Below are positions 12,093 to 64,000 of a stretch of 64,000 bases of DNA, one piece after another; the first letter of the stretch is position 1; every line of letters begins with the position of its first letter. The position numbers were made by a program, and so were the translations under genes. The notes beneath the pieces are model-generated. The model was not told where the DNA came from and ran no database searches. It worked only from the letters and a program-made list of their open reading frames with translations. The DNA is from Sphyrna mokarran. Taxonomy: Eukaryota. The stretch lies in NCBI GenBank assembly GCA_024679065.1, contig JAGIQG010000040.1, positions 8,866,001 to 8,930,000 of the forward strand. The letters run 5' to 3'.

Positions 12093-14419
12093 TCCTGAAT
12101 CTGTTGTTTTTGATTGCTCATTTTCAGCGAAATTACATTTTACATAGTTTTTGAGAAATGAGACAGATACATAATTAAAAATGGGAAAGAGTTCTGAAAT
12201 GAAGACCAGTTTAATTTAAAGTAGGTCATTGATGTTCTGTTGTTGTAATTTGACCATTATCAATTGGAATCCAACAGTTTGAATGAAATTAACAGATGGA
12301 ACAGCTCAACCTGCTGGGAACTCGGCTGATGCACCCTTTGTGTCTATTCTGTTCCTGTGCGCGTGCTCACTGTGTTGGAATCAGGAATTTGTCTGGCTGG
12401 TTGTAACTTTTCTGGTTCCTTCTCCTGCATTTCAGGGAGTGAGATATATTTATTCAATACACCTGTATCTGTGCGAAATATGATAGTTTCACTTGATGTT
12501 TGACTCGGCGTCTCAGAAATGGGATCCCTAAAGCGTATTGTGACCATCAGAGAGAGCAAAACATCAGGCTGTAGAGGAAGAATTGGGTCATCTTTAAGCA
12601 GTGATGTACCAGCCTTGTGAATGTTCGATGAGCAAATGCAAGGTGAGATGTATTATATCGTCCTCCGTACTGCAGCAGTCCCTGATCTGTTTAGTCACAT
12701 TCATCTTATTTTTAATCTTTAGAAGAGATTTTAGCGTCATTTGCTCAGCTAGAATTTGTATTATTCCCTAATTGTTCCTTCGCAAAGTGTTGATATGAAA
12801 CACCCTTGAATGACTGCAGTCCAAATGCTGCAGGCATCCACCTTGTTGTTAGGAGGAAGTTCCAGGATTTTGACCCAGCGACTATGAATGAACTTAGATA
12901 TTGTTTCAAGTCAGGATGGTGTGTGCTTTGGAGAGAGCTTGCACGTGATAGCGTTCATATGTGGTTGCTGCCTTTGCTCTGTTGGGATGTAAAGGGAGCG
13001 GGTTTGGGCAGTATTTCTATGGAGTCTTGGTGAATTGCTGCAGTGCATGTTGCATATAATACACATTGCTGGTACTGCTGGCGAGTGATGGAAGGAGTGA
13101 ATCGGTGAATGAGGAGGCAGGTAATCTTGTGGATGGCTTTGCCCTGGATTGTGTCAAATTTCGTGAGATTTTACGGGTTTCACTCATTGAGGAAAAAGGA
13201 AATCATTCAATTTTGACTGACTTGTGAAAGATTTAATTGTTTTTCCAACCCTTGGCCCGCAGTCCGTATTGTGCTCACTTGTCACTCCCACTTACTGTGT
13301 GAGTGAATATTTGTGGAGTGAGTGTTCTTTACTGGACTGAATCAGCCAGATAGAAAATTATATAAATCATGCACTTTCACACACATAAATACACAGATAC
13401 ATGCACTCATATTCTCTCACACATGCACACATATGTACGCATACTTACTTTCTTTTTCATTCCATATCTCTCACAACATTCTCCTTCTTTCACAGTCTGT
13501 ATACACTCTCTCAAATACAGATACATACATACTCTCGCTCTCTTAGTCAGTCTTTCAGACCTCCGTATACAAAACACTCACATGCACACACCCCCAAACA
13601 CGTTCTCTCTTACACGCAGACACACGCACACACACACACACATGGTCGCACAGTCTCTTCATAGAATAGAATCATAGGATCCTACAATGCAGACGGAGAC
13701 CATTCAGCCCATCGAGCCTGCATTGACAGCAATCTCACCAAAGCCGATTCTCCATAACCATTCGGAGGGACTTTAACTAGTCCCTCCGAAACTAAGGGGC
13801 AATTTAGCACGGCCAATCCACTGAACCTGAACATTTTTGGACTCTGGAAGGAACCAGGAGCATTTGAATGAGAGTGGAATCGAGGAACCTGAGTAAAACT
13901 TAAGTAAATAAGTTCCGGTGGGAAAATCTTCTCTCATTGGAGGCATATATAGCACAAAGCAAGATGGTAATGGTTGTTGGAGGTCAAACATCTAAGTTGA
14001 GATATCACTGCAGGAGTTCGGCAAGGGACTGTTCTGGAACCAACAATCTTTTACTCTTCATCAATGACACATTTCATCCAACATGAGGTCAGAAGTAGGA
14101 ATTTCCATGCGTTGTGCTGGACAGAAAGACACAATAAATAAGAAGAGATCTGGCTGGGACTAAATCCGCCTGGCTCCCCAATAATGGTGTAAACTTAGTG
14201 TTTGATTCCTGTGTGACACTAGTTTTGCTGTACGTTTCCCTTCCAGCTCCCTCAGTCTGTCTATTTGTTCACTGATCCGTGTTTCTTAAAGAAAGGCACC
14301 GACATTAAAGCAGCTGCCCGGTGATCTACACTGATTCCTGACTTTACACAGCCCTGTTACTGAAAGCTGATCAATGTAGAGAATCGGGAAAAGATCGATG
14401 GAGAGGAAGAGGAGGAGGT

Positions 14420-16060
14420 GGCTCACTGACTTTTTCACCCTCACCCACAGTTACTCACTCATCCTCAATCTCTCGTCCTCACTCAAAGAACTTTCCTCAT
14501 TTACGCTCACTTGTACACGACAACTTCCCTCACTCATCCTCACACACTCAGTCATTGACAATCACTCGCTCATATAGAACATAGAACATAGAACACTACA
14601 GCACAGAACAGGCCCTTCGGCCTTCGATGTTGCGCCGACCAATATAAAAAGCAATGACCCTCCAAACTAAACCATTCCCTTCTCTTCCATACACTTATCA
14701 ACTAACCTCTTAAACGCCACCAAACTTGGCGCATCCACAACTGCTGCAGGCAGGGCATTCCACTCCCGAACCACCCTTTGGTTCATTCGCTCACTCACTC
14801 TCATCCATCCTCACTCACTCACACACCCTCATTCAACTTCACTCATTCAACATCAATCACACACCCTGATTCACTCATCCTCCCACCCTCACTTACTCAC
14901 ACATTTGCTCACTCACCTCCATTCACTCACTCTCATACAGTCAGTCACTCACACACATTCACTCATTCACATTCACTCACCCTCACACTCTCTCACTCAC
15001 TCGCCCTCATTCAATCACTGTCACTCAGCCACCCACGCTCACACACCATCACTCATTCAACCTCACTCACTAAATCTCATTCACTGACTTACAGCCTCAG
15101 TCAGTCACCAACATTCTCACACACCTTCATTCACTCATCACACTAACCCACCCTCACTCACCCAGTCTCACTCACTCACTCTCATTCTTCCTCACTCACT
15201 CACCCCATTCACTCACCCTTATTCACTCACCCCACTGACCCACCCTCAATCATCCAGACTCACTCACTCTCACTCACCTCACTCACTCACCCTATTCACT
15301 CAATCTCACTCAATTAACCACCCTCCCTAATCCAGTCTCAATCACTCTCACTCTCTGATCGCACTTCCCCCTCACTCATCCAGTTTCACTAACTCACACT
15401 CACTCACCTACCCACACTCACTTAGCCAGACACATCCCCACAAATTGTGACTCTCAATGACTCTCTCTTTCCATCACATACATCTCATGACACATACAAA
15501 CTCACTCAGACTCACGCACTTACATTCACTCACACACCCTCACATACTCACCATCACTCGGCATCACGCACCTTAACTCACAGATCCTCAATCACTCATC
15601 CTCATTTAAACCCCTTCACTCACTCACTCTCACCCAACCACTCATCCGCATTCATTCTCCCTCACACACTGTCACACACCACCTTCAATACACTCCCTGA
15701 CTCAGTCACTCTCTCACCCTCATTCACTCACTCGCACTCTCCTATCTGCACTAACCTTCACGGATCCTCACTCACTCACACTGTTTGTTTCATTCTCGCT
15801 CACCGACTCTCACTCACCCACCTTCACTCACACATTCAGCCACCTTCACTTACCCATCCTCTCTCACACACCCTCATTTACTCACGCTCTCTCACTATCA
15901 CCCACACTTACTCACCCACAGTCACTCATCCTCGCTCAATGAACTTCACTCACTCACGTCATTTATCCATCTTCCATCACTCACACACTATCACTCATCC
16001 ACTCTCACTCATTCAATCGCTCATCTTCATGCACTCACATTCGCTCACTCACACTCACTG
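14420..16060. repeat. (TCAC/CTCA)n low-complexity tract
   Basis: Almost G-free + strand, giving spurious His/Ser/Thr ORFs; mirrored at ~60430-62450. Confidence 0.9.
14575..14777 (-). mobile_element. Young CR1 3' fragment, left arm only
   Basis: (atagaac)n tail plus the young-family 3' end; empty site at ~62300. Confidence 0.92.
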
Positions 16061-16134
16061 AATCTGTGTGGGGAGGTCTACAACGAAAGAGAAGAAAGGT
16101 CCCAAGTGGCATTTTGGTGTTTAAATTTGGGAGC

Positions 16135-16610
16135 TGCCCTGGGAGTGCAGAGAGCTGGAGGGAATCGGTGGAGGCTTGGGGTCAGGAAAATGGCAAAGAG
16201 TCAGGGGAGAACAGGAGGCGTGGGAAAGGGAAGAGAGCAGTGGGTGGACGGGGGGAGGATAGAGAGCCAGGGGAAACAGCAGGAATCCGGGGGAAGTGCA
16301 GAGAAAAGGGCACACAGCCGGGGAACAGGATGGAAAACTGTGGAAAAGGGCAGAGAGGGAGGAGAAAGGGCAAGAAGCAAACGGAAAGGGCAGAGAGACC
16401 ACTGAAAGTGGAGAGAACCAGGAGAAAGGGGAAGGAGGCATGAGAAAGGTCAGGGAGGGAGGAGAAAGGCCAGAGAGCCGAGGGACAGGAAAGAGAGCCC
16501 AGGGGAAAGGACTGGAGAGCCAGGGGGAAAGGGCTGGAGAGCCAGTGGGAAGGGCAAAGAGTCGGTCAAAATGGGCAGAGAGCGAGTGATGGATGGGCGG
16601 AGTGAAGGAG
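16135..16610 (+). repeat. Purine/G-rich low-complexity tract
   Basis: GA-rich sense strand; mirrored at ~59905-60365. Confidence 0.8.
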
Positions 16611-17033
16611 GTTTAAAATAGAGTAGGCACCACAATCAGCTCCTCTGTAATCTCAGTGAATGGTGGAGGGGACTTCAGGTCCCGAATGGCTAACTCCTGT
16701 TGTTAATGTGTGATCCTTCAATTAGTCAATATTGCATTTATTTGAATCTTTAATCACATTTAGAGTTTCCTGATCATTCAGTACGTATTCATCCCGGAGT
16801 TATTTTGGAAGCAAAGTCAATAATGTTCGTTTTGTGGACTGAGATGCATTGAATTGGAGGGAGGAAGGAGCATCAATCAGTTTGAACACAGGCAATTTCC
16901 AAAACTAGTGTGGAGATGCCGGTGTTAAGTTGGTGTGAACACTGTAAGGAGTCTAGTAACACGAGGTTAAAGTCCAACAGATTTATTTGGAATCACAAGT
17001 TTTCGGAGCTCTCTCATCAGGTGAGTGGATGAT

Positions 17034-17276
17034 AGAACATAGAACATAGAACATTACAGCACAGAACAGGCCCTTCGGCCTTCGATGTTGTGCCGACCAA
17101 AATAAAAAGCAATGCCCCTCCAAACTAAACCATTCCCTTCTCTTCCATATACTTTTCAATTAACCTCTTAAACGCCACCAAACTTGGCGCATCTACAACA
17201 GCTGCAGGCAGGGCATTCCACTCCCTAATCACTCTTTGAGTAAAGAACCTACCTCTGATATCCGTCCTATAACTCA
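17034..17276 (-). mobile_element. Young CR1 3' fragment, left arm only
   Basis: (atagaac)n tail; empty site at ~59490. Confidence 0.92.
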
Positions 17277-17796
17277 AAGACAACTTCTTCATCACAAAGT
17301 GTTGTGGTTTGGAAAATGAATAGTTGCTTCAATAATGCAGAACACCTTTGCTCTCATTTGTTAATCCACTGAGTGACGTGTCATTTTGAGACTATCAGAA
17401 TGCCTTTTTTTTCTTCCGAATTTGATAGAGGTGGAGACAGGGATATAAGTTTCTACAGAGATGACGATTCTCAAATGATAGAAGTAACATTATCTCAAAG
17501 ATGGATGGAGGATTTAATCGGGAAATATTCGGAAAAAATCATAATTCTAATTCATGTTCGAGATAGAAGCATAGAAAATAGAAACTGGAGAAGGCCATTC
17601 GGCCCTTTGAGCCTACTCCGCCATTCACTTCGGTCAGAGCTCATCAATATTCTGATCATATCTACTACCCATATCCCTTCATCCCTTTAACACCAAGAGC
17701 TATATCTAATACAGAAACCTATTTGTTACAACATGTTTGTTGACTAAATAAACACAAATAAGAGTCTAACTTATTCAATTGGTTATCGTTTCCCAG

Positions 17797-18094
17797 TGAC
17801 ACCGTCTCCACTCACTCTCTACAGCCTGCTCTCCTCCGGTCAACAACAAAATTCTGACGACTCCATCACCTACGGATGTTTGGCGATGGATTACTCTCCA
17901 GATGTCTCTAAACTGACCTGGAAGAAAGATGGGCAGCAGATCACCAGTGGGTTTGAGACGTACCCATCAGTGAGAAACACGAAGGGAACCTACACCCTGA
18001 GCAGCCAGTTAACCATCAGCGACTCATCGGGAGCATGTCCCAAAATTGACTGAGGTTCAACATAGTAACTCGGTCAAGAGCGTTGAAATGCCAT
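17797..18094 (+). pseudogene. IGHM: Cmu1 exon, left copy; 2-nt deletion removes the second domain Cys and creates TGA at 18051-18053
   Basis: TPSPLTLYSLLSSG...TYGCLAMDYSP...LTWKK...YTLSSQL...KID*. 298 nt versus 300 nt in the right copy (gac tgt gag). Confidence 0.93.
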
Positions 18095-18302
18095 GTAAGT
18101 GTTGTGCAGCTTGTGTAAAAGAGAAACTCTGAGATTAACATATAGGGTTTGGTTAGAACTCATTTAATTGATGTGCATTATCTGGCCCTCTGGATTGGTA
18201 CAATTAGTGTCTATTGAATACAAATGAGTTACTAATGAAGACAATAGTTTTACTGATCTACCTCTTCTACAGGAAATGACAAATATGATTTTTCCCCTGA
18301 AG

Positions 18303-18614
18303 GTCAGCCTGATATCCATCCAACTGTTATCCTCACCGTGAGTTCCAGTGGAGAAATTTCAAGCCGCAAATTAGTAACCATCGCCTGTTCAATCATCGAT
18401 TTCCAGCCAAAGCCAATGACAGTGAAATGGCTGAAGAATGGACAACTCATGGATTCAGGAATTGTCACCTCTCCCGCCTGTGAAATGAACGGGAATTTCT
18501 CGGCCAGCAGTCGGCTGACAGTCTCCACTCGGGATTGGTTCAGCAAAGCGGTTTATACCTGCCAGGTCACTCATCAAGGATTCACCCAGAGTCAGAACAT
18601 CAGCGCATCTCAGT
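18303..18614 (+). CDS. IGHM: Cmu2 exon, left copy (intact)
   Basis: Acceptor cccctgaag; [22 protein letters not shown]...YTCQVTH; donor gtaaga at 18615. Confidence 0.93.
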
Positions 18615-19529
18615 GTAAGAGACTCAAACAGAGGACGAAATATATCATTCCAAAGTTAATCGGAATTAGGGATCTATTTTATATTTTTTACAAAACTTAG
18701 AACAACTTCTAAGTTATTGACATGTAGTTTGCTGCATTAGGACAATCCCTCGTTCAGCATTTCACCAGAAACGCAATTTCTTGTTATTCCTTCATGAGAT
18801 GTGCATTTACTTTCCAAACCTGAGGGCGCTTAAGTGTCAACCACTTTGCTGTGAATCTGTACTCACATGCATGCCAGGCCAGGTGAAAACAGGAGGTTTA
18901 TTTTGCGAAGGAGCATTGTGAACTAGGAGGGGTTTGACAGCAATAGTTTCATGATAATCATTTCCACTTTTAATTACAGATTTTTTATAAAAATCAAATT
19001 TCATATTCGCAATGATGAGATTCCAATCTGTGCCCCCAGATTCTTGCCCAAGGTGACAAGTTCACTGACAACAGCATATGCCACTGCCTCCCCTTGAAAG
19101 AGAGCTCCTTTCCAGTTTGAAGTAATATAGTGAGCGAGGTGGCCTTGATGTCAGCTTTTTGCACAGACAGCTAGTAAAATTTGGAGAGACAGTCGGTATC
19201 GGACTGTTTCATAGGTCGCAGCATAGGAGTAAAATATTGGAAAGTGCATCCATCCTATTTATAAGCCAACGGTCAGTGCTTTTTCCCTGAGTTCAAGATT
19301 GTGTATTTGTTTGGGAATTCTGCAATGCTGATTCATGGAAATGGTACCGCTGCTACAGTACTTAATACAGGGAATAATTTCATAGAGTAAGTTGGTTATC
19401 TATTCGCCATGGAAGGTGAAAGATGATAGTTAGAGACTGATATATTGAAAGCGACTTCGTCTTCTTCAGGCTGAAGACTGTTGTCCTGCAGAAGGGGAAC
19501 TCGAGTTCATTTTCATTTTTCATTCACAG

Positions 19530-19838
19530 ATCCTTCCCAGTGTCATGGTACCACAGTGACGATACAGCCACCACCAACAGAACAGGTCTTGCTGGAGGCG
19601 ACCGTGACTTTAACCTGCATCATTTCTAATTCTCCTTATGGAGTTAATGTGTCCTGGATCCAAGACAGGAAGTATGTGAAATCAGAGAATGCCGAAATTC
19701 CAGGAGCGGATCCTGACAGCGTAATCAGCAAATTAAACACTTCGACACAAGACTGGCTGAGCACGGTTGTGTTTGAGTGCGTGGTGAGCCATCGGGATCT
19801 GCCGACTCCTTTAAGAACATCTATCCACAAGGAAACAG
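19530..19838 (+). CDS. IGHM: Cmu3 exon, left copy (intact)
   Basis: Acceptor ttcacag; EATVTLTC...VSW...[14 protein letters not shown]; donor gtgagc. Confidence 0.94.
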
Positions 19839-19864
19839 GTGAGCTGAGAGATTGAAACAATAAA

Positions 19865-20590
19865 TGTAGGGTCAACGGCAGCGTTCTGAGGAATGTGGAG
19901 GAACAGAGAGGTCTTGGGTTTCACATCCACAGATTCTGAATTTTGCCACTCAAATGAATAGAGCCGTGAAGAAGGCTTATAGTGTGTTAGTGTTTATTAA
20001 CAGGGAGTTTGAGTTTAACAGCTGTGGGGTTATGCTGCAACTATATCGGAACCACAATTGGAATATTGTGCGCAGTTCTGGTCACCTCACTACAAGAAGG
20101 ACGTGGAAGCATTAGAGAGCGTACAGAGGAGATTTCCCAGGATGCTGTCTGGTTTGGAGGGTATGTCTTATGAGGTAACGTTGAGGGACCTGGGGCATTT
20201 CTCTTTAGAGTGGAGGAGGATGAGAACGGGCTTAATAGAGGTTTATAAGATGATGAGAGGGATTGATAGAGTGGACGTGCAGAGACTGTTTCCTTGGGTG
20301 GATGTAGCTGATACAAGAGGCCATAACTATAAGGTTCATGGTGGAAGATACAGGAGGGATGTCCGAGGTAGATTCTTCACTCAGAATGTGGTTGGGATGT
20401 GGAATAGACTGCCTGCTGTGATAGTGGAGTCGGATATTTCGGGAAATTTCAAGCGGTTATTGGATGGGCTCTTGGAGCACAATAGAATGCTAGGGATTGG
20501 GATAGCTTGATCTTGGAATTGGACATAGCTCTGTACAGCATTGAGGGCCGAAGGGCCTGTATTCTGCTGGACTGTTCTATGTTTCTATGT
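19865..20590 (+). mobile_element. Older CR1 3' fragment shared by both arms
   Basis: ORF 20058-20510 is CR1 ORF2-like; counterpart at ~56185-56905. Confidence 0.9.
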
Positions 20591-20959
20591 AATTGCATCA
20601 CCGTGTCTATCTCTAGTGGAGTGTACTAGTCAATATTTAGTATTCAGTGCATTAATGGTCTGCCCTGAACTAAAAGATTCTGGGCCGATCGATATTATAC
20701 GTGGAAGATTGATGTGTTGATGAATGAAAAAGTGAACTGAAGGCGATGTTATTGGGTTTAGATCAAAGAAGAAGCGAGGAGCCTGATGTGGAGCATAAAA
20801 AAAAAACAGAAAACCAAAAAGAAAAGTAGATCATTTGGACCGAATGACCTGATTCTGTGCTGTAAACTTTCTGAAACTTTCCAGTCCGCCCCTCCGAGTT
20901 GTTTGAGAAAATAATTGTGTCCACCTCTGCTCCAAGCTGGAAGTCAAAAATGGAAACGC

Positions 20960-22385
20960 TTAAAATGGAAACGCTGTTTAAAAAAGGTAGCCGACAAAAG
21001 GCAGAGAATTATAAGCCCGTTAATTTAACGTCTGTAGTCGGAAAAATGCTTGAATCCGTCATCAAAGAAGAAATAGAGAGACACCTAGAAAAGAACGTTT
21101 GAACAAGCAGACGCAGCAAGGTGTTTAAAGAATTTATTGGATTTTCTATGAGGATGTGACTAGTGCGGTAGATAGAAGGGAATCGGTGGATGTGGTGTTT
21201 TTAGATTTCCAGAAGGCCTTTGATAAGTTGCCTCACAAAAGGTTGCTGAAAAAAGTTGGGGTGCAAGGAGTTGGGGTAAGGTATTAGCGTGAATAGTGGA
21301 TTGGTTGTCTAATAGGAAGCAGAGAGTAAGACTCAATGGCTACAATTCTGGTTGGCAGCTGGTGACTAGTGGAGTGCCCCAGGGATTGGTGCTGGGGCCT
21401 CAACAGTTTACCATATACGTAGATGATCTGGAGGAAGGCTCTGAGTGAAGGTCACGAAATTTGATGATGACACGAAGATGAGTGGACAAGTAAATTGTGT
21501 GGAGAGTGTGGAAAGTCTGCAGAGAGATCTGGATGGATTGAGTGAGTGGGCGAGCATCTGGCAGATGGAGTATAATGTTAACAAGTGTGAGGTTATCCAC
21601 TTTGGTAGAAATAATAGTAGGAGGGATCATTACTTAAATGGTGAAAAGCTGCAGCATGCTCCGGTGCAGAGGGACTTGGGGATCCTTGTGCATGAATCGC
21701 AAAAACCCAGTCTGCAGGTGCAGCAGGTGATCAAGAAGGCGAATGGAATGTTGGCCTTTATAGGTAGGGGGATAGAATGCAAAAACAGGGAGGTCTTGTT
21801 GCAACTGTACAGGGCATTGGTGAGGCCGCAGATAGAGTATTGTGTGCAGTTTTGGTCGCCACATTTGAGGAAGGATATATTGGCCTCGAAGGGAGTGCAG
21901 AGAAGGTTCAGTAGGCTGATACCAGAGATGAGGCGTTTAGCCTATGAGGAGCGATTGAGTAGACTAAGTTTGTACTCGTTGGGGTTTAGAAGGTTGAGTC
22001 GGGATCTTATAGAGACATATAAGATAATGGAAGAGATGGATAAGGTAGATTTAGAGAAATTCTTCCCGCTTAGAAACGATAGCAGAACTAGAGGGCACAG
22101 CCTCAAAATAAGGGGAGAGGGCGATTTAGATTGGAGTTGAGGAGGAACATCTTCACTCAAAAGATGGTCAATCTTTGGAATCCTCTGCCCGTTGAAATGG
22201 TGGAGGCTACCTCGCTGAATATATTTAAGTCACGGGTAGATACGTTTCTGACAGACAGGGGAATTAAGGGGAGAAAGCGGGAAAGTGGAACTGATCCACT
22301 TCAGATCAGTCATGATCTTATTGAATGGCAGGGCAGGCTCGAGGGTCGAGATGACCTACTCCTGCTCCTATTTCTTATGTTCTAA
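20960..22385 (+). mobile_element. Older CR1 RT fragment shared by both arms
   Basis: NYKPVNLTSVVGK and KFDDDTK (FADD-like) motifs; internally deleted counterpart at ~55036-55805. Confidence 0.9.
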
Positions 22386-22482
22386 AATTGAAATTGCAGC
22401 ATGTTTTCCTGATATCTAACTTGCGGTTTCATTGTCTCCAGAATTCTCCAGTTTATTGACATTTATTGTACATTTTCTGCAG

Positions 22483-22874
22483 ATCCAAATCCACGGGAAC
22501 CGTTCGTCTCTGTCCTCCTGCCCTCCGCAGAAGCTATCTCCGCTCAGAGTTTCGTCTCCCTCAGCTGCTTAGTAAGAGGTTTCTCCCCCCGAGAGATTTT
22601 CGTCAAGTGGACCGTCAACGACAAGCCGGTGAATCCTGGGAACTACAGGAACACCGAGGTGATTGCAGAGAATGGCAATAACTCCTTCTTCATGTACAGC
22701 CTGTTATCCATTGCAGCAGTGGAATGGTCCAGTGGCGCTTCTTACTCCTGTGTGGTGGGACATGAAGCCATCCCCTTGAAGATCATCAACAGAACAGTTG
22801 ACAAATCCAGCGGTAAACACAGTTTTGTGAATATTTCCCTTGCACTGATGGACACTGTTAATTCATGTCAATGA
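22483..22874 (+). CDS. IGHM: Cmu4 exon plus secretory tailpiece, left copy (intact)
   Basis: [19 protein letters not shown]...[11 protein letters not shown]...[27 protein letters not shown] sequon and penultimate Cys present; internal membrane-form donor G|gtaaac after 22812. Confidence 0.96.
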
Positions 22875-22901
22875 GAATCACTCGCTTACATTAAAGACTT
22901 C

Positions 22902-22907
22902 AATAAA
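22902..22907 (+). terminator. Polyadenylation signal of secretory mu mRNA
   Basis: aataaa 28 nt after the stop codon; conserved in the right copy (~54510-54516). Confidence 0.75.
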
Positions 22908-23711
22908 AAAAAACGTTTCCTCTAATTATAAATGAAATACCAAATTGTTTAATTGATTGCTTTTCATTTTTACATCCATTATAAATTTTTAGTTTGAGTC
23001 AGATATTTTCAGGTCTTGGACCCAAATCTTGCTGAACCTGTGCGCCCTGCTCAGATACACCCAGATACAAAACAAATTAAACACATCATTACAGGATTCA
23101 GGAAAATATCTTCACAGTCTTTCATCCCACTGAGGAGAGATATGACAATTTCAACAATTCTGACAAACATACCATTTAGATCTCGGTGTTCCTGTTTCTC
23201 TCATTGTCCATCACTTTCTCCATTGATGACAGCTTTCAGCTGCTGCAGCACACCCACTGGGAACTGAAGTGAGTGTCACACAGAAACATGGAGCAACAAT
23301 CCCCCCATCAGAGAGAGGGAGAGTGAAATTGTCAACATACCGGATTCCTACTCAGCCAACAAGGAGAGGGGAGGCGCGACAGCTAACCCATGTACCACCA
23401 CTTCCTCAATGAAACGAGGAAGAATGTCAGTATTTAATCCACTCCACCTTCACCTCCTGGGTGGTTAGAACCATCAGAGACATTGCATTTCCGGATAGAC
23501 ACAAGTAAACTCTGAGCTCACTCTCCTCCCTCTCCCCAAATAGCGTGTTTGGAAGGGAACGACTCTCTACTATAAGGACCCAGTTCCCAACAGTACAAGT
23601 TAATTTCCGGTTTACTTGCTACAGATTTTGAAGTATCATTTCCATTATCAAAGTATCCTTGAAGTATATAAGACACACACACACACACACATACGCACAC
23701 ACATATAATAT

Positions 23712-24992: not shown

Positions 24993-25006
24993 CACACATA
25001 TGTGTG

Positions 25007-25056
<50 letters not shown>

Positions 25057-25379
25057 AAAATATTTCAACACTCTTGTTCCTGCTAATCATGTGCTGATAT
25101 TGATTTCCCGTAATACAAATTTAAACACACGACTGAATCCTCCCCGGATTTCACTATTCTGTTACTGAGGTTTCTGAGATGCACCAAAGAATTATTTCAT
25201 TCACTCTCTTGATATCGCCGTGCCCATTGCATAGAATAAACGTAAACAGCAAACTCTGAAAAATATGCTCCATTAGTCGGATTGTTTGGATCACGTTCAG
25301 TTAATAATTGCCGGTGAAACTTGGAGCAACAGTTAGAAAATAGACATACTGATAACACTGCACAAAACTCTCACAATTA

Positions 25380-32227: not shown

Positions 32228-32299
32228 TGAAGATTTCTTGTAGCACATGATTTATGTGGAGTTGGTGTTGTTTCCTGATCGAAAACATGAGTGATATTG

Positions 32300-50343: not shown

Positions 50344-50481
50344 CTGTAAAATAATAATACGTAATGAAGCAGATGTTTGTGATGCGGGACATTAATGTTA
50401 CAGTTTTTAATCAGTGAAACATTGAGAGATTTTTAAATCCGTTCAGCCAGTTTCAAATGTGACCGAATTGAATAATCTCAC

Positions 50482-50609
50482 CTTCACCAGAGTGACTGCA
50501 GTGCTATAGAAAATGCTCAGGAAGAACAGGACGATGAATGTAGAAGCCGTTGTCCAGATGTTGTTGTTCTCAGCCTCATTGTCTTCAATCCAGATGTGGT
50601 CAGTGGGGT
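50482..50609 (-). CDS. IGHM: IgM TM1 exon, right copy
   Basis: (D)[42 protein letters not shown], 128 nt as in the left copy. Confidence 0.96.
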
Positions 50610-52517: not shown

Positions 52518-52573
<56 letters not shown>

Positions 52574-53123
52574 ATACTTGAAGGATACTTTGGTCATGAA
52601 AGTGATTCTTCAAAATCTATGGCAAGTAAACCGGAAACTAATTTGTACTGTTGGCAACTGGGTCCTTACAGTAAAGAGTCATTGCCTTCCAAACACGCTA
52701 CGTGGAGAGAGGGAGGAGAGTGAGCTCAGTGTTTACCTCTCTCTATCCGGTAATGCAATGTCTTTGATGGTTCTAACCACTCAGGAGGTGAAGGTAGAGT
52801 GGATTAAATAATGACATTCTTCCTCATTTCATTGAGGAAGTGGTGGGACATGGGTTAGCTATTGCCCCCCCCTCTCTTTGTTGGGTGAGTAGGAAGCCAG
52901 TATGTTAACAATTGCTCCTCCCTCTCTCTGATGGGGGGATAGTTGCTCCATGTTTCTGTGTGACACTCACTTCAGTGGGTGTGGTGCAGCAGCTGAAAGC
53001 TGTCATCAATGGATAAAGGAATGAACAATGAGAGAAACAGGAACACCGAAATCTAAATGTTATGTTTGTCAGAATTGTTGAAATTATCATATCTCTCTTC
53101 AGTGGGAGGAAAGACTATGAAGA

Positions 53124-54306
53124 CGGCGGTTGATGTAGTATATATGGACTTTAGTAAGGCTTTTGATAAGGTGGCCCATGGAAGACTTCTACAGAAAATG
53201 CAGATGTGTGGAATAGAGGGTGATTTAGCTAATTGGATTAGAAATTGGCTGGCAGATAGAAGACAGAGGGTGGTGGTTGATGGGAGATATTCATCGTGGA
53301 GTTCGGTGACGAGTGGTGTGCCTCAGGGGTCTGTTTTGGGGCCCCTGCTGTTTGTAATTTTATAAATGATCTGGATGAGGGTATTGAGGGATGGATCAGT
53401 AAATTTGCAGATGATACTAAAGTTGGTGGTGTGGTAGATAGTGAAGAGGGGTGTTTTAGTTTACAGAGTGACTTGGACAAGTTGCAGAGCTGGGCCGAGA
53501 GGTGGCAAATGGAGTTTAATGTGGAAAAGTGTGAGGTAATGCACTTTGGCAGGAACAATAAATGTGTAGAGTATAGGGCTAATGGTAGGGCTCTTAATAG
53601 TGTTGAGGAACAGAAGGATCTTGGTGTATGTGTCAATAGATCCCTGAAAGTAGGCAGTCAAGTGGATGAAGTTGTTAAGAAGGCTTATGGAGTCTTAGCT
53701 TTTATTGGTAGGGGGATTGAATTTAGGAGCCGCAGCATCATGTTGCAGCTGTACAAAACTCTAGTGCGGCCGCACTTGGAGTATTGTGTGCAGTTCTGGT
53801 CGCCACATTATAAGAAAGATGTGGAGGCATTGGAGAGGGTACAGAGGAGGTTTACTAGGATGTTGCCTGGTATGGAGGGCAGGTCCTATGAAGAGAGGTT
53901 GAAGGATTTGAGGTTGTTTTCGTTAGAAAGGAGGCGGCTAAGAGGGGATCTTATTGAAGCATATAAGATGATTAGAGGTTTAGATAGGGTGGACAGTGAT
54001 AGCCTTTTTCCTAGGATGGAGAAAGCTAGCACGAGGGGACACAGCTTTAAATTAAGGGGTATGAGTTATAGGACGGATATCAGAGGTAGGTTCTTTACTC
54101 AAAGAGTGATTAGGGAGTGGAATGCCCTGCCTGCAGCTGTTGTAGATGCGCCAAGTTTGGTGGCGTTTAAGAGGTTAGTTGATAAGTATATGGATGAGAA
54201 GGGAATGGTTTAGTTAGGAGGGGCATTGCTTTTTATTTTGGTCGGCACAACATCGAAGGCCGAAGGGCCTGTTCTGTGCTGTATTGTTCTATGTTCTATG
54301 TTCTAT
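53124..54306 (+). mobile_element. Young CR1 RT/3' fragment, right arm only
   Basis: [20 protein letters not shown], (ttctatg)n tail; flanked by aaga/aaga; empty site at ~23108. Confidence 0.95.
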
Positions 54307-54543
54307 TAAGATATTTTCCTGAATCCTGTAATGATGTGTTTAATTTGTTTTGTATCTGGGTGTATCTGAGCAGAGCGCACAGGTTCAGCAAGATTTAGTT
54401 CCGAGGCATGAAAATATCTGACTCAAACTAAAAATTTATAACGGAAGTAAAAATGAAAAGCAACCAATTAAATAATTGGGTATTTCATTTGTCATTAGAG
54501 GAAAAGATTTTTTATTGAAGTATTTAATGTAAGCGAGTGATTC

Positions 54544-54935
54544 TCATTGACAGGAATTAACAGTGTCCATCAGTGCAAGGGAAATGTTCACAAAACTTGG
54601 TTTACCGCTGGATTTGTCAACTGTTCTGTTGATGATCTTCAAGGGGATGGCTTCATGTCCCACCACACAGGAGTAAGAAGCGCCGCTGGACCATTCCTCT
54701 GCTGCAATGGATAACAGGCTGTACATGAAGAAGGAGTTATTGCCGTTCTCCGCCACCACCGCGGTGTTCCTGTAGTTCCTGGGATTCACCGGCTTGTCGT
54801 TGACGGTCCACTTGACAAAGATCTCTCGGGGGGAGAAACCTCTCACTAAGCAGCTGAGGGAGACGAATCTCTGAGCGGAGACTTCTTCTGCCGAGGGCAG
54901 GAGGACAGAGACCAACGGTTCCCGTGGATTTGGAT
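54544..54935 (-). CDS. IGHM: Cmu4 exon plus secretory tailpiece, right copy (intact)
   Basis: ...[24 protein letters not shown], 392 nt as in the left copy. Confidence 0.96.
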
Positions 54936-56936
54936 CTGCAGAAAATGTACAATAAATGTCAATAAACTGGACAATTCTGGAGACAATGAAACCGCTAGTT
55001 AGATATCAGGGAAATATGCTGCAATTTCAATTTTAGAACATAAGAACACAAGAAATAGGAGCAGGAGTAGGCCATCTAGACCCCCAAGCCTGCCCCGCCA
55101 TTCAATAAGATCATGGCTGATCTGAAGTGGTTCAGTTCCACTTACTCACTTTCTCCCCTTAACTCTTACTTCCCCTGAATATCATAAACGTATCTACCCG
55201 TGACTTAAATATAATTAGCGAGGAAGCTTCCACCACTTCAACAGGCAGAAAATTTCCGGAGACTCACCAGCCTTTGAGTGAAGAAGTTCCTCCTCAACTC
55301 TGATCTAACCCCCCTTATTTTGAGGCTGTGCCCTCTAATTCTGCTCTCCTCTCTACCTCTCCCCCATCCATCCCCTTCATTATCTTATATGTCTCTATAA
55401 GATCCGCCCCCCCCGCGCAACCTTCTAAATTCCAATCAGTACAAACCTAGCGTGCTCAATCTCTCCTCACAGGCTAACCCCCTCATCTCCGGTATCAGCC
55501 TAGCGAACCTTCTCTGCATTTCCTCCAAGGCCAATATATCCTTCCACAAATGCGGCGACCAAAACAGCAAACAGCCTCCACAGCACCAGCTACAATTGCA
55601 ATAAGACCTCTCTACTTTTATATTCTATCCCCCTCGCTATAAAGGCCAACATCCCATTCGCCTTTTTGTTGATCAAACCGTTCTTTTCTACGTGCCTCGC
55701 TATTTCTTCTTTAATGACGGATTCGAGCATTTTGCTGACTGCAAAACTTTAACCTAACCGGCCTATATTTCCCTGCCTTTTGACTGCTACCTTTTTTTAA
55801 ACAGCGTTTACATTTTAAACATTTCTATTTTTGACTTCCACTTGGAGGATAGGTGGATACAATTATTTTCTCAAATAACTCGGGGGGGGGACTGGAAAGT
55901 TTCAGAAAGTTTACAGCACAGAATCAGGCCATTCGGCCCAACTGATCTACTCTTCTTTTTTGGTTTTCTGGTTTTTATGCTCCACATCAGGCTCCGCGCT
56001 TCTTCTTTGATCTATACTCAATAATATCGCCTTCAGTTCACATTTCATTCGTCAACACGTCAAACGTCCCCGTAAAAATATCAATTGGCCCAGAAACTTT
56101 TAGTTCAGGGGAGACCATTAATGCATTGAATACTAAACATTGACCAGTACATTTCCACTGGGGATAGACACAGTGATGCAATTACATAGAAACATAGAAC
56201 AATACAGCACAGTACAGGCCCTTTGGCCTTCAGTGTTGTGCCAAGCTATGCTCAATCCCAAGATCAAACTATCCCACTCCCTATCATCCTGGAGTGCCCA
56301 ATGTGCCTATCCAATAACCGCTTGAAAGTTCCTAAAGTGTCCGACTCTATTATCACAGCAAGCAGTGCATTCCACACCCCAACCACTCTCTGAGTGAAGA
56401 ATCTACCTCGGACATCCCTCCTACATCTTCCACCATGAACCTTACAGTTATGCCCCCTAATAACAGCTACATCCACCCAAGGAAATAGTCTCTGCACGTC
56501 CACTCTATTAATTCCTCTCATCATCTTATAAACCTCTATTAAATTCGTCTCTCATCTTCCTCCACTCTAAAGAGAAAAGCCGCAGCTCCCTCAATCTTTC
56601 CTCATAAGACCTACCCTCCAAACCAGGCAGCATCCTGGGAAATCTCCTCTGCACTCTCTCGAATCCTTCCACATCCTTCTTATAGTGAGGTTACCAGAAG
56701 TGAACACAATATTCCAAATGTGGTCTCACCAAGTTCCGATATAGTTGCAGCGTAACCCCTCAGCTCTCAAACTCAAACTCCCTGTTCATAAACGCTAACA
56801 CACTATAAGCCTTCTTCACGGCTCTATTCACTTGAGTGGCAACCTTCAGAATCTGGGGATATGAATCCCAAGATCTCTCTGTTCCTCAGAACGCTGTCGT
56901 TGACCCTACATTTATTGTCTCAATCTCTCAGCTCAC

Positions 56937-57245
56937 CTGTTTCCTTGTGGATAGATGTTCTTAAAGGAGTCGGCAGATCCTGATGGCTCACCACGCACTC
57001 AAACACAACCGCGCTCAGCCAGGCTTGTGTAGAGGTGTTTAATTTGCTCATCACGCTGTCAGGATCTGCTCCTGGAATTTCGGCAATCTCTGATTTCACA
57101 TAATTCTTGTCTTGGATCCATGACACGTTAACTCCATAAGGAGCATTAGAAATGATGCAGGTTAAAGTCACAGTCGCCTCCAGTAAGACCTGCTCTGTTG
57201 GTGGTGGCTGTATCGTCACTGCGGCATCATGGCACTGGGAAGGAT
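56937..57245 (-). CDS. IGHM: Cmu3 exon, right copy (intact)
   Basis: 309 nt, both domain Cys and the Trp present, ag/gt boundaries. Confidence 0.94.
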
Positions 57246-58151
57246 CTGTGAATGAAGAATGAAAACGAACTCGAGTTCCCCTTCAGCAGGACAACAGCTT
57301 AAGCCTGAAGAAGACGAAGTCGCCTTCAATATATCAGTCTCTAACTATCATCTTTCACCTTCCATGGCGAATAGATAACCAACTTGCTCTATGAAATTAT
57401 TCCCTGTATTGAATACTGTGGCATCGGTACCATTTCCATGAATCAGCATTGCAGAATTCCCAAATAAATAAACAATCTTGAACTCAGGGATAAAGCACTA
57501 ATCGTTAGCTTATAAATAGGGTGGATGCATTTTCCAATATTTTACCCCTATGCTGTGACCTATGAAACAGTCCGATACCGACTGTCTCTTCAAATCTTAC
57601 CAGCTGTCTGTGGAAAATGCTGACATCAAGGCCATCTCGCACACTATATTACTGCAAACTGGAAGGGAGCTCTCTTTCAATGGGAGGCAATGGCATATAC
57701 TGTTGTCAGTGAACTTGTAACCTAGGGCAAGACTCTGGGGGTGCAGATTGGAATCTCATCATTGCAAATATGAAATTTGAATTTTATAAAATATCTGTAA
57801 TTAAAAGTGGAAATGGTTATCATGAAGCTATTGCTGTCAAATCCCTCCTAGTTCACGATGCTCCTTAGAAAATGTACCTGCTGTTTTTATCTGGCCTGGC
57901 ATGCATGTGACTCCAGATTTACAGCAAAGTGGTTGACACTTTAGTCAGGTTTGGGAAATAAATGCACATCTGATGAAGGAATAACAAGAAGTTGCGTTTC
58001 GGATGAAATTCTGAACGAGGGATTGTCCTAATGCAACAAACTGCATGACAATAACTTAGAAGTTGTTCTATGTTTTGTACCAACTGTAATAGATCCCTAA
58101 TTCCGATTAACATTGGAATGATATATTTCGTCCTCTGTTTGAGTCGCTTAC

Positions 58152-58455
58152 ACTGAGATGCGCTGATGTTCTGACTCTGGGTGAATCCTTGATGAGTAAC
58201 CTGGCAGGTATAGACCGCTTTCGTGAACCATTCCCCAGAGGACACTGTCAGCCGACTGCTGGCCGAGAAATTCCCGTTCGCTTCACAGGCGGGAGAGGTG
58301 ACAACTCCTGAATCCATGGGTTGTCCATTCTTCAGCCACTTCACTGTCATTGGCTTTGGCTGGAAATCGATGATTGATGGTTGTTAATTTGCTGCTCGAG
58401 ATTTCTTCACTGGAACTCACGGTGAGGATAACAGTTGGATGGATATCAGGCTGAC
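58152..58455 (-). pseudogene. IGHM: Cmu2 exon, right copy; 8-nt deletion removes the first domain Cys and shifts the frame
   Basis: accatc[gcctgttc]aatcatcgat deleted at ~58375; 304 nt versus 312 nt; the shifted frame stops within the exon. Confidence 0.92.
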
Positions 58456-58662
58456 CTTCAGGGGAAAAACATATTTGTCATTTCCAGCAGAAGATGTAGA
58501 TCAATAAAACTATTGTCTTCATTAGTAACTCATTTGTAGTCAATAGGCGCTAATTGGACCAATCCTCAGGGCCGGATTATGCACATCAATTAAACGAGTT
58601 ATAACCAAAACCTATATCTTAACCTCAGTGTTTCTCTTTTACACAAGCTGCACAACACTTAC

Positions 58663-58962
58663 ATAGCATTTCAACGCTCTTGACCGAGTTGATATGTCGA
58701 ACCTCACAGTCAATTTTGGGACATGCTCCCGATGAGTCGCTGATGGTTAACTGACTGCTCAGGGTGTAGGTTCCCTTCGTGTTTCTCACTGACGGGTAAG
58801 TCTTAAACCCAGTGGTGATCTGCTGCCCATCTTTCTTCCAGGTCAGTTTAGAGACATCTGGAGAGTAATCCATCGACAAACATCCGTAGGTGATGCAGTC
58901 GTCAGAATTTTGTTGTTGACAGGAGGAGACCAGGCTGTAGAGAGTGGGCGGAGACGGTGTCA
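58663..58962 (-). CDS. IGHM: Cmu1 exon, right copy (intact)
   Basis: [17 protein letters not shown]...[11 protein letters not shown]...KIDCEVRH...VEML, 300 nt, ag/gt boundaries. Confidence 0.94.
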
Positions 58963-60792
58963 CTGGGAAACGATAACCAATTGAATAAGTTAGACTCTCA
59001 TTAGTGTTTATTTAGTCAACAAACATGTTGCAACGAATAGGTTTCTATATTAGATATAGCACTTGGTGTTAAAGTAATGAATGGATATGGGTAGTAGATA
59101 GGATCAGGATATTGATGAACTCTGACCGAAGTGAATGGCAGAGTAGGCTTAAAGGGCCGAATGGCCTACTCCAGCTTCTATTTCCTATGCTTCTATCTCG
59201 AACATTGATTAGAATTGTGATTTTGTTCCGAGTATTTCCCGATTAAATCTTCCATCCATCTTTGAGATAATGTTACTTCTATCATTTGAGAATCGTCATC
59301 TCTGTAGAAACTTATATCCCTGTCTCCACCTCTATCAAATTCAGAAGAAAAAAAAAAGACATTCTTATAGTCTCAAAATGACATGTCACTCAGTGGATTA
59401 ACAAACAAGAGCAAAGATTTTCTGCATTATTGAAGCAACTATTCATTTTCCAAACCACAACACTTTGTGATGAAGAAGTTGTCTCTTCATTCATACCATC
59501 CATTCACCCGATGACAGAGCTCCAAAAGCTTGTGATTCCAAATAAATCTGTTAGACTTTAACCTAGTGTTGGGAGACTCCTTACAGTGTCCACACCAACC
59601 TAACACCGGCATCTCCACACCAGTTTTGGAAATTGCCTGTGTTCATACTGATTGATGCTCCTTCCTCCCTCCAATTCACTGCATCTCAGTCCACTAAACG
59701 AACATTAGTTACTTTGCTTCCAAAATACCTTCGGATTGAATACTTACTGAATGATCAGGTAACTCTAAATGTGATTACAGATTCAAATAAATGCAACATT
59801 GAAGGATCATACACTAATAGCAAGAGTTGGCCATTTGGGCCCTGAAGTCTCCTCCATCATTCACTGAGATTACATATATGCTGATTGTGGTGCTTGCTCT
59901 ATTTTGAACCCCCTCACCCCGCCCATCCATCACTCGCTCTCTGCCCATTTTGCCCGACCCTTTGCCCTTCCCACTAGTTCACTGACTGTTACCCCTGTCT
60001 CTCCAGCCCTTTCTCCTGGGCTCTCTGCCTTGTCCCTCGGCTCTCTGGCCTTTCTCCTGCCTCCCTGCCCTTTCTTGTGCCTTCTTCCCCTTTCTCCTGG
60101 TTCTCTCCACTTTCAGTGGTGTGTCTGCCCTTTTCCCTTGCTTCTTACCCTTTCTCCTCTCTCTCCGCTCTTTTCCACCTTGTTCCCCGGCTGTGTGCCC
60201 TTTTCTCTGCACTTCCCCCAGATCTCTATTGTTTCCCCTGGCTCTCTGTCCTCCCCCCACCCACCCTTTGCTCCCTGCCTTTTCCCACGCCTCCTGTTCT
60301 CCCTTGACTCTTTGCCCCGAGCCCTCAGCGATTCCCTCCAGCTCTCTGTACTTTCAGGGCATCTCCCAAATTTAAACACCAAAATGCCACTTGAGACCTT
60401 TCTTCTCTTTCGTTGCACACAGATTCGGTGAGTGTGAGTGAGCGAATGTGAGTGCGTGAGGGTGAGCGATTGAATGAATGAGAGTGGATGAGTGATGCTG
60501 TGTGAGTGATGGAAAGTAGGTAAATGAGGTGAGTGAGTGAAGTTCATTGAGCGAGGATGAGTGATTGAGGGTGAGTAAGTGTGGGTGATGGTGAGACAGC
60601 ACGAGTAAATGAGGGTGTGAGAGACAGGATGGGTGAGTGAAGGTGGCTGAATGTGTGAGTGAAGGTGGGCGAGAGAGAGTCGGTGAGCGAGATTGAAACA
60701 AACAGTGTGAGTGAGTGAGGATGCGTGAAGGTTAGTGCAGATAGGTGATTGCGAGTGAGTGAATGAAGGTGAGAGAGTGACTGAGTCAGAGT

Positions 60793-61432
60793 ACAAGAAC
60801 AAAGAAAAACACAGCACGGGAAACAGGCCCTTCAGCCCAGCGAGCCCGCGCCGCCGTCCTAACGTCTTAATGACATATAGAGACCAATATAGGGACAATT
60901 TGTTACCCAATCAGCCTAAGAGCACATTTTTGTGATGTGGGAGGAAACCGGAGCATCCGGAGAAAACCCACGCAACCACGGGGAGAATGTGCAAACTCCC
61001 GCAGACACAGGCCCAAATCCATGTGTCTGCACAGCAACAGCGATAGTCTCTGAGGTGTCATGTTGCCCATCTGATGGTCCAGTTTAAGCATACGCTAACG
61101 ACATGAAGCACTAGGCCACTCCTGAAGTAACATCCAAGAGCAGCCCTCGCACGACCTGCCGAATGCATGCACCTTGTTGGTCAACAAGATGGACCGAATA
61201 GCCTGTGGAAACAAATAAAGTATTTAAACAGTCCTCCTATATCCCTCTATCTGCAGACCGCTCATGTGGCTGTCCAAGAGACCCTTAAACAACCCTAGCG
61301 TGCCTGCTCCCACCACCTTACTCGGTAGTGCATTCCACACCCCCACTACCCTTTGTGTGAAAAAATGCCCTCTAATATTCGTCTTATACATAGTGCCCCT
61401 CACCCTAAGGCCCTCGTTCTATCCGATTCTAA
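60793..61432 (-). mobile_element. CR1 3' end with embedded V-SINE-like segment, right arm only, 5-bp target duplication
   Basis: agagt at 60788-60792 and 61433-61437; empty site at ~15695; colinear with 3468-4210. Confidence 0.85.
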
Positions 61433-64000
61433 AGAGTGTGTATTGAAGGTGGTGTGTGACACTGTGTGAGGGAGAATGAATGCGGATGAGTGGTTGTGTG
61501 AGAGTGAGTGAGTGAAGGTGTTTGAGAGAGGATGAGTGATTGAGGATCTGTGAGTTAGGGTACGTGATGTTGAGTGATGGTGAGTATGTGAGGGTATGTG
61601 AGTGAATGTAAGTGCGTGAGTCTGAGTGAGTTTGAATGGGTCATGAGATGTAAGTGAGGGAGGGAGGGGTCATTGAGGGTCACAATGTGTGGGGGTGTGT
61701 CTGGCTGAGTGAGTGTGGGTAGGTGAGTGAGTGAGAGTGGCAATGATTGAGACTAGATGAGGGAGGGTGGGTAATTGAGTGAGGTTGGGTGAATGGGGTG
61801 AGTGATTGAAGTGAGTGAGACTGGATGAGTGAGGGTGCGTCAGTGAGGTGAGTGAATGAGGATGATTGAATGGCGTGAGTGAGTGAGGATGAATGAGAGT
61901 GACTGAGTGAGACTGGGTGAGTGAGGGTGGGTTAGTGTGATGAGTGAATGAAGGTGAGTGTGAATGTTGGTGACTGACTGAGGTTCTAAGTCAGTGAATG
62001 AGATTTAGTGAGTGAGGTTGAATGAGTGATGGTGTGTGAGTGTGGGTGGCTGAGTGACAGTGATTGATTGAGGGCGAGTGAGTGAGAGAGTGTGAGGGGG
62101 AGTGAATGTGAATGAGTGATTGTGTGAGTGAGTGACTGGATGAGAGTGAGTGAATGGAGGTGAATGAGCAAATGTGTGAGTAAGTGAGGGTGGGAGGATA
62201 AGTGAATCAGGTTGTGTGATTGATGTTGAACGAGTGAAGTTGAATGAGGGTGTGTGAGTGAGTGAGGTTAAGTGAGTGAGGATGAATGAGAGTGAGTGAC
62301 CAAATATGAGTGAATGATTGTCACTGAGTGAGTGTGTGAGGATGAGTGAGGGAAATTGTCGTGTGTAAGTGAGGATTAGTAAGGGAAGTTCTTTGAGTGA
62401 GGATGAGAGATTGAGGATGAGTAACTGTGGGTGAGGGTGAGAGAGTCAGTGAGCTACTTCCTCCTCTTTCTCTCCATCGATCTTTTCCCGATTCTCTACA
62501 TTGATCAGCTTTCAGTAACAGGGCTGTGTAAAGTCAGGAATCAGTGTAGATCACCGGGCATCTGCTTTAATGTCAGTGCCTTTCTTTAAGAAACACGGAT
62601 CAGTGAACAAATAGACAGACTGAGGGAGCTGGAAGGGAAGCTTACAGCAAAACTAGTGTCACACAGGAATCAAACACCAAGTCTACTCCATTATTGGGGA
62701 GCCAGACGGACTTTGTCCCAGCCAGATCTCTTCATATTTATTGCGTCTTTCTGTCCAGTGCAACGCATGGAAATTCCTACTTCTGATCTCATGTTGGATG
62801 AAATGTGTCATTGATGAAGCAATAAAAGATTGTAGGTTCCAGAACAGTCCCCTGCCAAACTCCTTCAATGATATCTCAACTTAGACGTTTAACCTCCAAC
62901 AACCATTACCATCTTGCCTTGTGCTATATATGCCTCCAATGAGAGAAGATTTTCCCGCCAGAACTTATTTGCTTAAGTTTTACTCAGGTTCCTCGATCTC
63001 ACTCTCATTCAAATGCTCCTGGTTCCTTCCACAGTCCACAAATGTTCAGGTTCAGTGGATTGGCCATGCTAAATTGCCCCTTAGTTTCAGAGGGACTAGT
63101 TAGAGTAAATATATTGGTTATGGGGAATGGGCTTTTGTGAGATTGTTGTCAATGCAGACTCGATGAGCTGAATGGCCTCCATCTGCATTGTAGGATCCTG
63201 TGATTCTATTCTATGAAGTCAACGACATTTACTCTGGCGTATGTGAATGGAAAGTGTGTAAGAAGGTGTTTATGTGTGTGTGTGTGTCTGTCTGTGTTTC
63301 TGTGTGTGATACAGAAAGATGGTGAATGTGTGCATGTGGGGTACAACATGCCTATTGGAAAGCAAGATAATATGTTCATGAGTGTGTGAAAGTATGCATG
63401 GGATTGTGTGTGAGTGAGAAAGGTGTGTGGAATGTGTACAATGTGTTTGAGTTGTAAGAGTGAGTGAGAATGCATGTGCGAGTTTGGGCTTATGTGACAG
63501 ACTGGCTGTGTGGAAGAGTGTGTGTTCGAGAGTGCGCATGGGTCTAAGTTTGTGAAGAGTGTTTGTGAGCGAGCTAGTACGTGAGAGCAAAAAATGTGCG
63601 AGATAGTGTGTGCAAGAGAGAAATATATGCGTACGTGTGAAATAGAGAGAATGAGAGAGATGCATGTGCAAGAGGAATTGTGAGAGAGTGTGTGTGAATA
63701 AGTGTGAGACAACAGATTGTGACAGAGTGTGGGAGAGAGAATGTGTGTGCGAGAGCGCGAGACCGTGCTTGTGTGTGTGTGTGTGTGTGTGTGTGCATGT
63801 GTCTGCGTGTAAGAGAGAACGTGTTTGGGGGTATGTGCATGTGAGTGTTTTGTGTACGAAGGTCTGAAAGACTGACTAAGAGAGCGAGAGTATGTATGTA
63901 TCTGTATTTGAGAGAGTGTATACAGACTGTGAAAGAAAGAGAATGTTGTGAGAAATATAGAATGAAAAAGAAAGTAAGTGTGCGTACATATGTGTGCATG

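Follow-up and report, generated by a model that had tools for sequence, protein, structure and literature searches.

The stretch analysed here, a window of 64,000 nucleotides from Sphyrna mokarran (contig JAGIQG010000040.1 of assembly GCA_024679065.1, positions 8,866,001 to 8,930,000), holds two immunoglobulin M (IgM) clusters arranged tail to tail, each followed by a gene for a GPR139-like G-protein-coupled receptor (GPCR). We consider it probable that the pair arose by an old inverted duplication of an IgM cluster together with its receptor neighbour, and that both IgM copies are now broken. An earlier note on this DNA had proposed that positions 13422-37520 mirror 43647-64000, with all constant-region (Cmu) and transmembrane (TM) exons, CR1 repeats and the receptor gene included. 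Self-BLAST of the window confirmed this, giving a colinear minus-strand chain from 13422 paired with 64000 to 37520 paired with 43647, in which long syntenic pieces were 83-96% identical and pieces of 0.6-3.9 kb scored E = 0.0, far above chance. In global alignment the arms were 88.4% identical over 18,312 columns, of which about 1.3 kb represented two independent CR1s forced together and was dropped from later counts. Each arm contains Cmu1 to Cmu4, the secretory tail, TM1, TM2 and the two GPCR exons, so that both carry the constant-gene layout of an IgM minicluster, and 23,182 bp lie between the two TM2 stops. The outer limit of both arms is the window end, not a biological boundary.

The arms are not near-identical, and each contains sequence of its own. 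The TM1 exons differ at 7 of 128 nucleotides, just as first noticed. Sequence private to the left arm lies at 14575-14781, 17032-17276, 23698-24985, 29074-32559 and 35021-35213, and sequence private to the right arm at 53125-54307, 60793-61437 and 63222-63768; left 21108-21731, which also lacks a right counterpart, reflects a right-side deletion within a shared CR1. The segment at 29074-32559, 3.5 kb in the interval between TM2 and the GPCR, contains a young CR1 and is either a left insertion or a right deletion. Self-BLAST, global alignment and comparison of the CR1 copies thus agreed with the earlier argument from private insertions, and an assembly fold-back or a doubled haplotype was rejected.

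Three CR1 relics, A, B and C, occupy identical sites in both arms (Table 1). Contigs from four runs of related animals (X1-X4) were aligned to 17300-23100, and relics A and B were each skipped in three of the four, which shows that both insertions are derived. Later private CR1 gains occurred in each arm, most of them 92-98% alike. At the 40 best-supported of 1,703 sites at which the left arm differs from the runs, the right arm agrees with the left at 17 and with the relatives at 23. The left and right arms are sisters in a tree of Cmu sequences (support 100/98, 10 rows) and in a tree of the GPCR (support 96/90, 32 rows). Within the window the spacer resembles the arms through CR1 repeats only, as a single-copy spacer should. 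An inverted segmental duplication is marked by reverse homology that stays colinear across non-coding DNA and across insertions held in common, as here, and inverted duplication of the IgM cluster and its 3' flank, as originally proposed, is the best reading of relics at identical sites in arms that are sisters relative to Triakis and Mustelus.

The direction of copying can be read from relic C, which continues in the right arm to 43354 and halts at 37520 on the left. Because only the right copy of this shared CR1 extends into the spacer, the right arm is the likely parent; the simplest reading, and a likely one, is that the right arm and spacer are ancestral and that the new junction lies on the left. 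We propose one old germline inverted duplication, with the right arm probably serving as template. A break or template switch may have occurred inside relic C beside the tRNA-Phe gene, after which at least 20 kb would have been copied in reverse, probably the whole variable-diversity-diversity-joining (V-D-D-J)-Cmu-TM unit with its 3' flank, leaving the 6-kb tRNA and zinc-finger stretch single between the copies. Purifying selection probably kept both copies for a time, and the two would then have died separately, the left one more thoroughly. In having an inverted copy, a non-inverted copy and a single spacer, the arrangement is like the fold-back inverted duplications described in PMC3907307; those cases arose newly in humans, show microhomology and come with a deletion or translocation at the chromosome end, whereas the junction in the window is decayed.

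Several observations weigh against an origin in one such event. Neither tree includes other IgM clusters of the S. mokarran genome, so the sisterhood holds against Triakis and Mustelus sequences only. The copies of relics A and C are 87% alike within pairs and 82-86% alike across pairs, only a slight gap. Run X1 carries window-type letters at some shared sites, and Mustelus has six GPCR copies on six contigs, all in one 90% cluster, which makes a larger subfamily plausible. One event, free of conversion and constraint, does not account for the uneven divergence along the arms described below. The inner junction shows no visible microhomology; local alignment ends there at 37520/43647, and the 15% decay would mask it. 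A later left deletion that shortened relic C would look alike and would void the argument on polarity. Finally, the join across the spacer is that given by the assembly.

The arms could instead be members of a larger IgM and GPCR subfamily, brought together and opposed by a later inversion or deletion. Neutral divergence of about 15% leaves much time for such an event, and close receptor copies are indeed numerous in Mustelus. In published great white coordinates for chromosome 27 (chr27), seven of the eight neighbouring pairs of IgM models are opposed (PMC12227049). However, the homology reaches to within 6 kb and breaks off inside a shared CR1 that extends further on one of the two sides, and the arms are sisters in both trees, from which same-genome paralogues are absent. 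We consider later juxtaposition unlikely, and retain the inverted duplication.

We then examined the coding capacity of the two copies. The left leader agrees with Triakis at MR and SLSLLLTFLSG, 2 nt replace three Triakis codons, and its ATG leads to a stop after 8 codons. In left Cmu1 a further frameshift accompanies the change of the SSC motif to SSG, which removes what we take to be the light-chain-binding cysteine. With both the leader and Cmu1 frameshifted, the left cluster, as judged from its sequence, cannot give a functional mu chain. The right copy is frameshifted in Cmu2; loss of the acceptor of this exon was considered and rejected, the true acceptor lying further downstream and being intact. 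By their predicted translations the IgM copy of each arm is broken, no frame staying open from leader to tail, and neither codes for a full-length mu chain. The claim that the pair captures a fresh step of cluster multiplication was thus not borne out: with both IgM copies and the right GPCR frameshifted, the pair is an instance of the birth-and-death evolution of elasmobranch immunoglobulin heavy-chain (IgH) miniclusters.

The coding indels measure 7, 2, 8 and 11 nt in the left leader, left Cmu1, right Cmu2 and right GPCR, respectively. The seven paired exon regions contain three indels, none of 1 nt, which argues that the lesions are real. The 2-nt Cmu1 deletion is absent from the 12 indel rows listed, of 147, for the contigs of runs X1-X4. 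Having many differences from each arm, these contigs were treated as those of relatives, hence as no check of the join or the lesions. The final base of Cmu2 (18614 and its right equivalent) is T in both arms and G in most of the contig depth of X1, X3 and X4, a shared splice-donor change.

These data also bear on whether the assembly has mis-joined two real but distant paralogues, some of the frameshifts perhaps being consensus errors. Such an error would fit the lack of read support for the join, the representation of relatives X1-X4 as short contigs, and the position of the 2-nt Cmu1 deletion in a TGTG run. Against it, the window has no gaps or Ns, an old CR1 spans the right junction without a break, and the lesions are multi-base, unlike homopolymer slips. 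The spacer is likewise colinear across its long young CR1: the unit at 37807-38565 recurs as 38576-39001 and 41698-42027 on the two sides of this element, which makes the spacer coherent across the largest repeat in it. We consider a mis-join highly improbable.

Could the right copy still be alive, making a three-domain IgM by skipping the frameshifted Cmu2, in convergence with nurse-shark IgM1gj (AAK07642 = P0132), which like the right copy has no usable Cmu2 (part of PMC5192425)? All constant exons are in one phase, so that skipping would preserve the frame; Cmu1, Cmu3, Cmu4, the tail and TM are open on the right and nearer to Triakis than their left counterparts (86.5% versus 84.7%); and Cmu2 is the sole right IgM lesion seen. 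Yet the right copy, unlike IgM1gj, retains the Cmu2 exon with both splice sites, and this exon shows no extra decay, with 3 right-derived changes in 103 positions compared with 5 in 102 in Cmu3. Nor does the right copy belong with IgM1gj, for it groups with the left copy and Triakis IgM (support 99/99), a different clade. Any V-D-J that it has, moreover, would lie outside the window. A live right copy is therefore very improbable, and we continue to regard both copies as probably dead.

Divergence between the arms was measured away from gaps as Kimura two-parameter distance (K2P). It was 0.091 between the J-C intron and a point just beyond relic A (5,324 sites), 0.103 in the 3' untranslated region and Cmu4-TM1 intron (1,490 sites), and 0.155 in relics B and C and the 3' flank (5,602 sites), the first and last regions differing at P = 2e-19. 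A change point near 20.4 kb exceeded all 200 block shuffles. A clean positional step as the whole story was rejected, since the Cmu4-TM1 intron past 20.4 kb is also low (K2P ~0.10) and the distal GPCR has diverged by 0.085 at synonymous sites. Repeat-derived sequence at 13660-14110 has 35 differences in 450 sites, against 414 in 3,114 for relics A, B and C together (P = 0.0006). The low divergence of the native IgM introns may stem from constraint, from a regional rate or from conversion among clusters in the more distant past.

The ratio of non-synonymous to synonymous divergence (dN/dS) between left and right was 0.38 for Cmu and TM1 (45 non-synonymous and 35 synonymous changes) and 0.51 for the GPCR, and both values point to purifying selection on the copies for part of the time since their split. 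Relative to Triakis, 415 amino-acid columns contain 19 left-derived, 12 right-derived and 6 ambiguous changes. The terminal branches of the Cmu tree (0.063 and 0.041) are similar to the stem to the Triakis node (0.059), which would make the left-right split roughly half as old as that node, a relative age from an uncalibrated gene tree. Conversion-maintained palindromes have near-identical arms, and efficient homologous recombination needs longer perfect tracts than 92 bp. No recent conversion tracts were found along the arm alignment: the longest stretch of perfect identity measures 92 bp, where 85 bp are expected by chance (P = 0.27), at 88% overall identity. The earlier note had allowed for arm-to-arm conversion or inversional recombination; with arms 9-15% diverged, many indels and a longest run at chance level, such exchange at the present day is not supported, and frequent exchange between the arms appears unlikely.

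Comparison with known systems places the pair within ordinary shark IgH organisation. Cmu4 is 93% identical to Triakis, and Cmu overall 85-87%. The closest homologues of the IgM and receptor genes come from houndsharks and catsharks, which points to a likely carcharhiniform source. According to PMC2435157 and PMC5192425, shark IgH is organised in miniclusters, some of them forming groups of pseudogenes, and those of nurse shark are separated by at least 120 kb. The window resembles the elasmobranch IgM minicluster (nurse shark G1-G5, PMC2435157; Triakis scyllium BAJ20180/1 = P0123/P0169) in its V-D1-D2-J within 1.7 kb and its one Cmu1-4 gene with secretory tail and TM1/TM2, and pseudogene clusters are known there too. 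It differs in that both copies are broken, in its J-Cmu1 distance of 9.2 kb versus 6.3-6.8 kb, and in a neighbour only 23 kb away.

Among the nine great white IgM models on chr27 in Table S1 of PMC12227049 the smallest gap is 171 kb, and tail-to-tail IgM gaps there are 685 kb or more. The same source, as far as consulted, places a stingray IgW pair tail to tail at 90 kb and has stingray IgNAR and IgW arrays that also switch strand. The IgH arrays of its shark antigen-receptor complex thus have same-isotype neighbours opposed as in the window, several of them marked pseudo, so opposed clusters are not new. Its table gives gene models, without arm homology or breakpoint analysis. Passages of PMC8692893 and PMC7677710 give cluster counts and omit orientation. 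The 23-kb IgM spacing is unusually close beside the 171 kb of the smallest great white IgM-IgM gap and the 120 kb or more of nurse shark. A literature search by title and opening of the abstract, which left much nurse-shark work outside its reach, found no paper on an inverted or tail-to-tail shark IgM pair and no arm homology, breakpoint, 23-kb spacing or co-duplicated GPR139-like gene for shark IgM.

The locus is informative about how IgH clusters are born and die, and offers no new mechanism. It supplies a worked case in which the duplication unit includes a non-immune neighbour and has a probable parent and breakpoint, and shared CR1 markers of this kind could order IgH clusters genome-wide. 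The multiplication and wide spacing of shark IgH clusters bear on one-antibody-per-cell control across many autonomous loci. The functional weight of the pair is limited because both IgM copies are broken, and it is likely an old, ordinary product of copying and decay, not a working switch. A more far-reaching account, in which a co-multiplied IgM and GPR139-like unit, past conversion and a still usable right copy all hold together, seems to us doubtful. If it were true, shark IgM would multiply as a unit that joins an IgM cluster to a GPR139-like gene and is copied in inverted orientation, and the window would preserve a birth with a readable breakpoint in the tightest IgM pair found (23 kb). 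The twofold lower divergence of the native IgM introns relative to the CR1 relics and flanks would then record past conversion among clusters. The lesions would be complementary, the left copy being dead in leader and Cmu1 and the right in Cmu2, and the right copy could be used through Cmu2 skipping or through an inversion joining right V-D-J-Cmu1 to left Cmu2-TM.

Table 1. Features of the 64,000-nucleotide window. RSS, recombination signal sequence.
Feature	Position	Strand	Remarks
Left VH leader exon	6879..6917	+	7 nt short relative to Triakis leaders; ATG out of frame (MRFLLVCC-stop)
Left VH exon	7048..7352	+	open; 23-RSS at 7353
D1	7764..7781	+	12-RSS (5'), 22-RSS (3')
D2	8153..8164	+	5' heptamer TACAGTG; invariant CAC lost (CAC to TAC)
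JH	8553..8600	+	23-RSS, GT donor
Left arm	13422..37520	+	24.1 kb; J-C intron to CR1 relic C; self-BLAST and global alignment
Left Cmu1	17797..18094	+	2-nt deletion after 18050 at second Cys, leading to stop; SSC to SSG
Left Cmu2	18303..18614	+	open
Left Cmu3	19530..19838	+	open
CR1 relic A, Cmu3-Cmu4 intron	left 19870..20590; right 56184-56900	+ (left)	skipped by IgM contigs of X1, X2, X4
CR1 relic B	left 20966..22383; right ~55040-55840	+ (left)	contigs of X1, X3 and X4 skip the relic; right copy has an internal deletion
Left Cmu4 and secretory tail	22483..22874	+	open
Left TM1 and TM2	26876..27153	+	TM1 26876-27003, TM2 27145-27153
Left GPR139-like GPCR	33443..35530	-	two exons, intact, 319 aa
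CR1 relic C, left copy	35713..37520	-	cut at inner junction, ~50 bp from tRNA-Phe
Spacer	37521..43646	.	6,126 bp; two tRNA genes with duplicated flanks, long CR1, zinc-finger debris, 5' continuation of right relic C
tRNA-Phe(GAA)	37574..37646	-	left spacer edge
Long young CR1	39036..41698	+	2.7 kb; endonuclease and reverse transcriptase domains; inserted in duplicated spacer unit
tRNA-Val(AAC)	42096..42170	-	
CR1 relic C, right copy	43354..45453	+	runs ~290 bp on into spacer
Right arm, likely parental copy	43647..64000	-	20.35 kb; cut by window end
Right GPR139-like GPCR	45636..47629	+	11-nt deletion near 47530 replaces C-terminal tail
Right TM1 and TM2	50335..50609	-	TM1 50609-50482
Right Cmu4 and secretory tail	54544..54935	-	open
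Right Cmu3	56937..57245	-	open
Right Cmu2	58152..58455	-	8-nt deletion near 58378, first Cys lost, frameshift to stop; splice sites intact
Right Cmu1	58663..58962	-	open

The rearranging segments of the window (V-D-D-J, 6879-8600) were seen in the left cluster only; any right V-D-J would fall past 64000. The left cluster is complete in its parts (leader, V, D1, D2, J, Cmu1-4, tail, TM1 and TM2) and has the form of a minicluster, with one V, two D and one J in ~2 kb and 23/12/23/12/12/23-type RSSs, the 5' heptamer of D2 being damaged. In the J-Cmu intron a degenerate, strongly C-skewed (CTCA)n array occupies 14790-16060 (mirrored at 62450-60420), followed by a purine- and G-rich tract at 16100-16620 (mirrored at 60350-59950). 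A classical switch region in this intron was rejected, AGCT occurring there 2.3 times per kb compared with a window mean of 2.9 per kb. Old direct duplications of 66-71% identity pair 8895-9279 with 9478-9846 and 10748-10978 with 12062-12281 in the left intron, and a 59-bp tandem pair lies at 4617-4733. Scans of metagenomes for shark IgM contigs gave 0 matches in one case and 132 pattern matches, none confirmed, in a second. The protein P0126 bears the name Aeromonas veronii and has 93% identity with shark Cmu4; it is probably host contamination in a bacterial record.

The receptor belongs to the rhodopsin-class seven-transmembrane proteins (PF00001, 7tm_1, E = 7e-20). It had 1,789 matches at E <= 1e-30, the best being Mustelus XP_078059210 at 89%, and its name is the label carried by its close elasmobranch homologues. 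It shares the 7tm_1 domain and two-exon structure with the shark 'probable GPR139'-like family, and differs from it in lying 3-6 kb from TM2 of an IgM gene with which it was duplicated. No link between a GPR139-like gene and shark IgH was found in the literature search, the term GPR139 being absent from the surveyed papers. The Mustelus models P0001, P0161 and P0163-P0165 start with sequence that matches the translated intron end of the window gene, and P0162 and P0002 carry the window exon-1 peptide; the start sites of the former five were probably mis-called.

In the spacer, the long CR1 at 39036-41698 has open stretches of 330, 245 and 320 aa, and the window contains five shorter copies that match it at 92-95% identity. 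Segments at 37670-37781, 42341-42453 and 42700-42754 form a common upstream flank of tRNA-Phe and tRNA-Val. The sequence at 42468-42754 is a decayed copy of 42109-42400, and 37574-42754 is a small tRNA array from local duplication. Frameshifted debris of a C2H2 zinc-finger exon lies at 42760-43200, beside the right copy of relic C.

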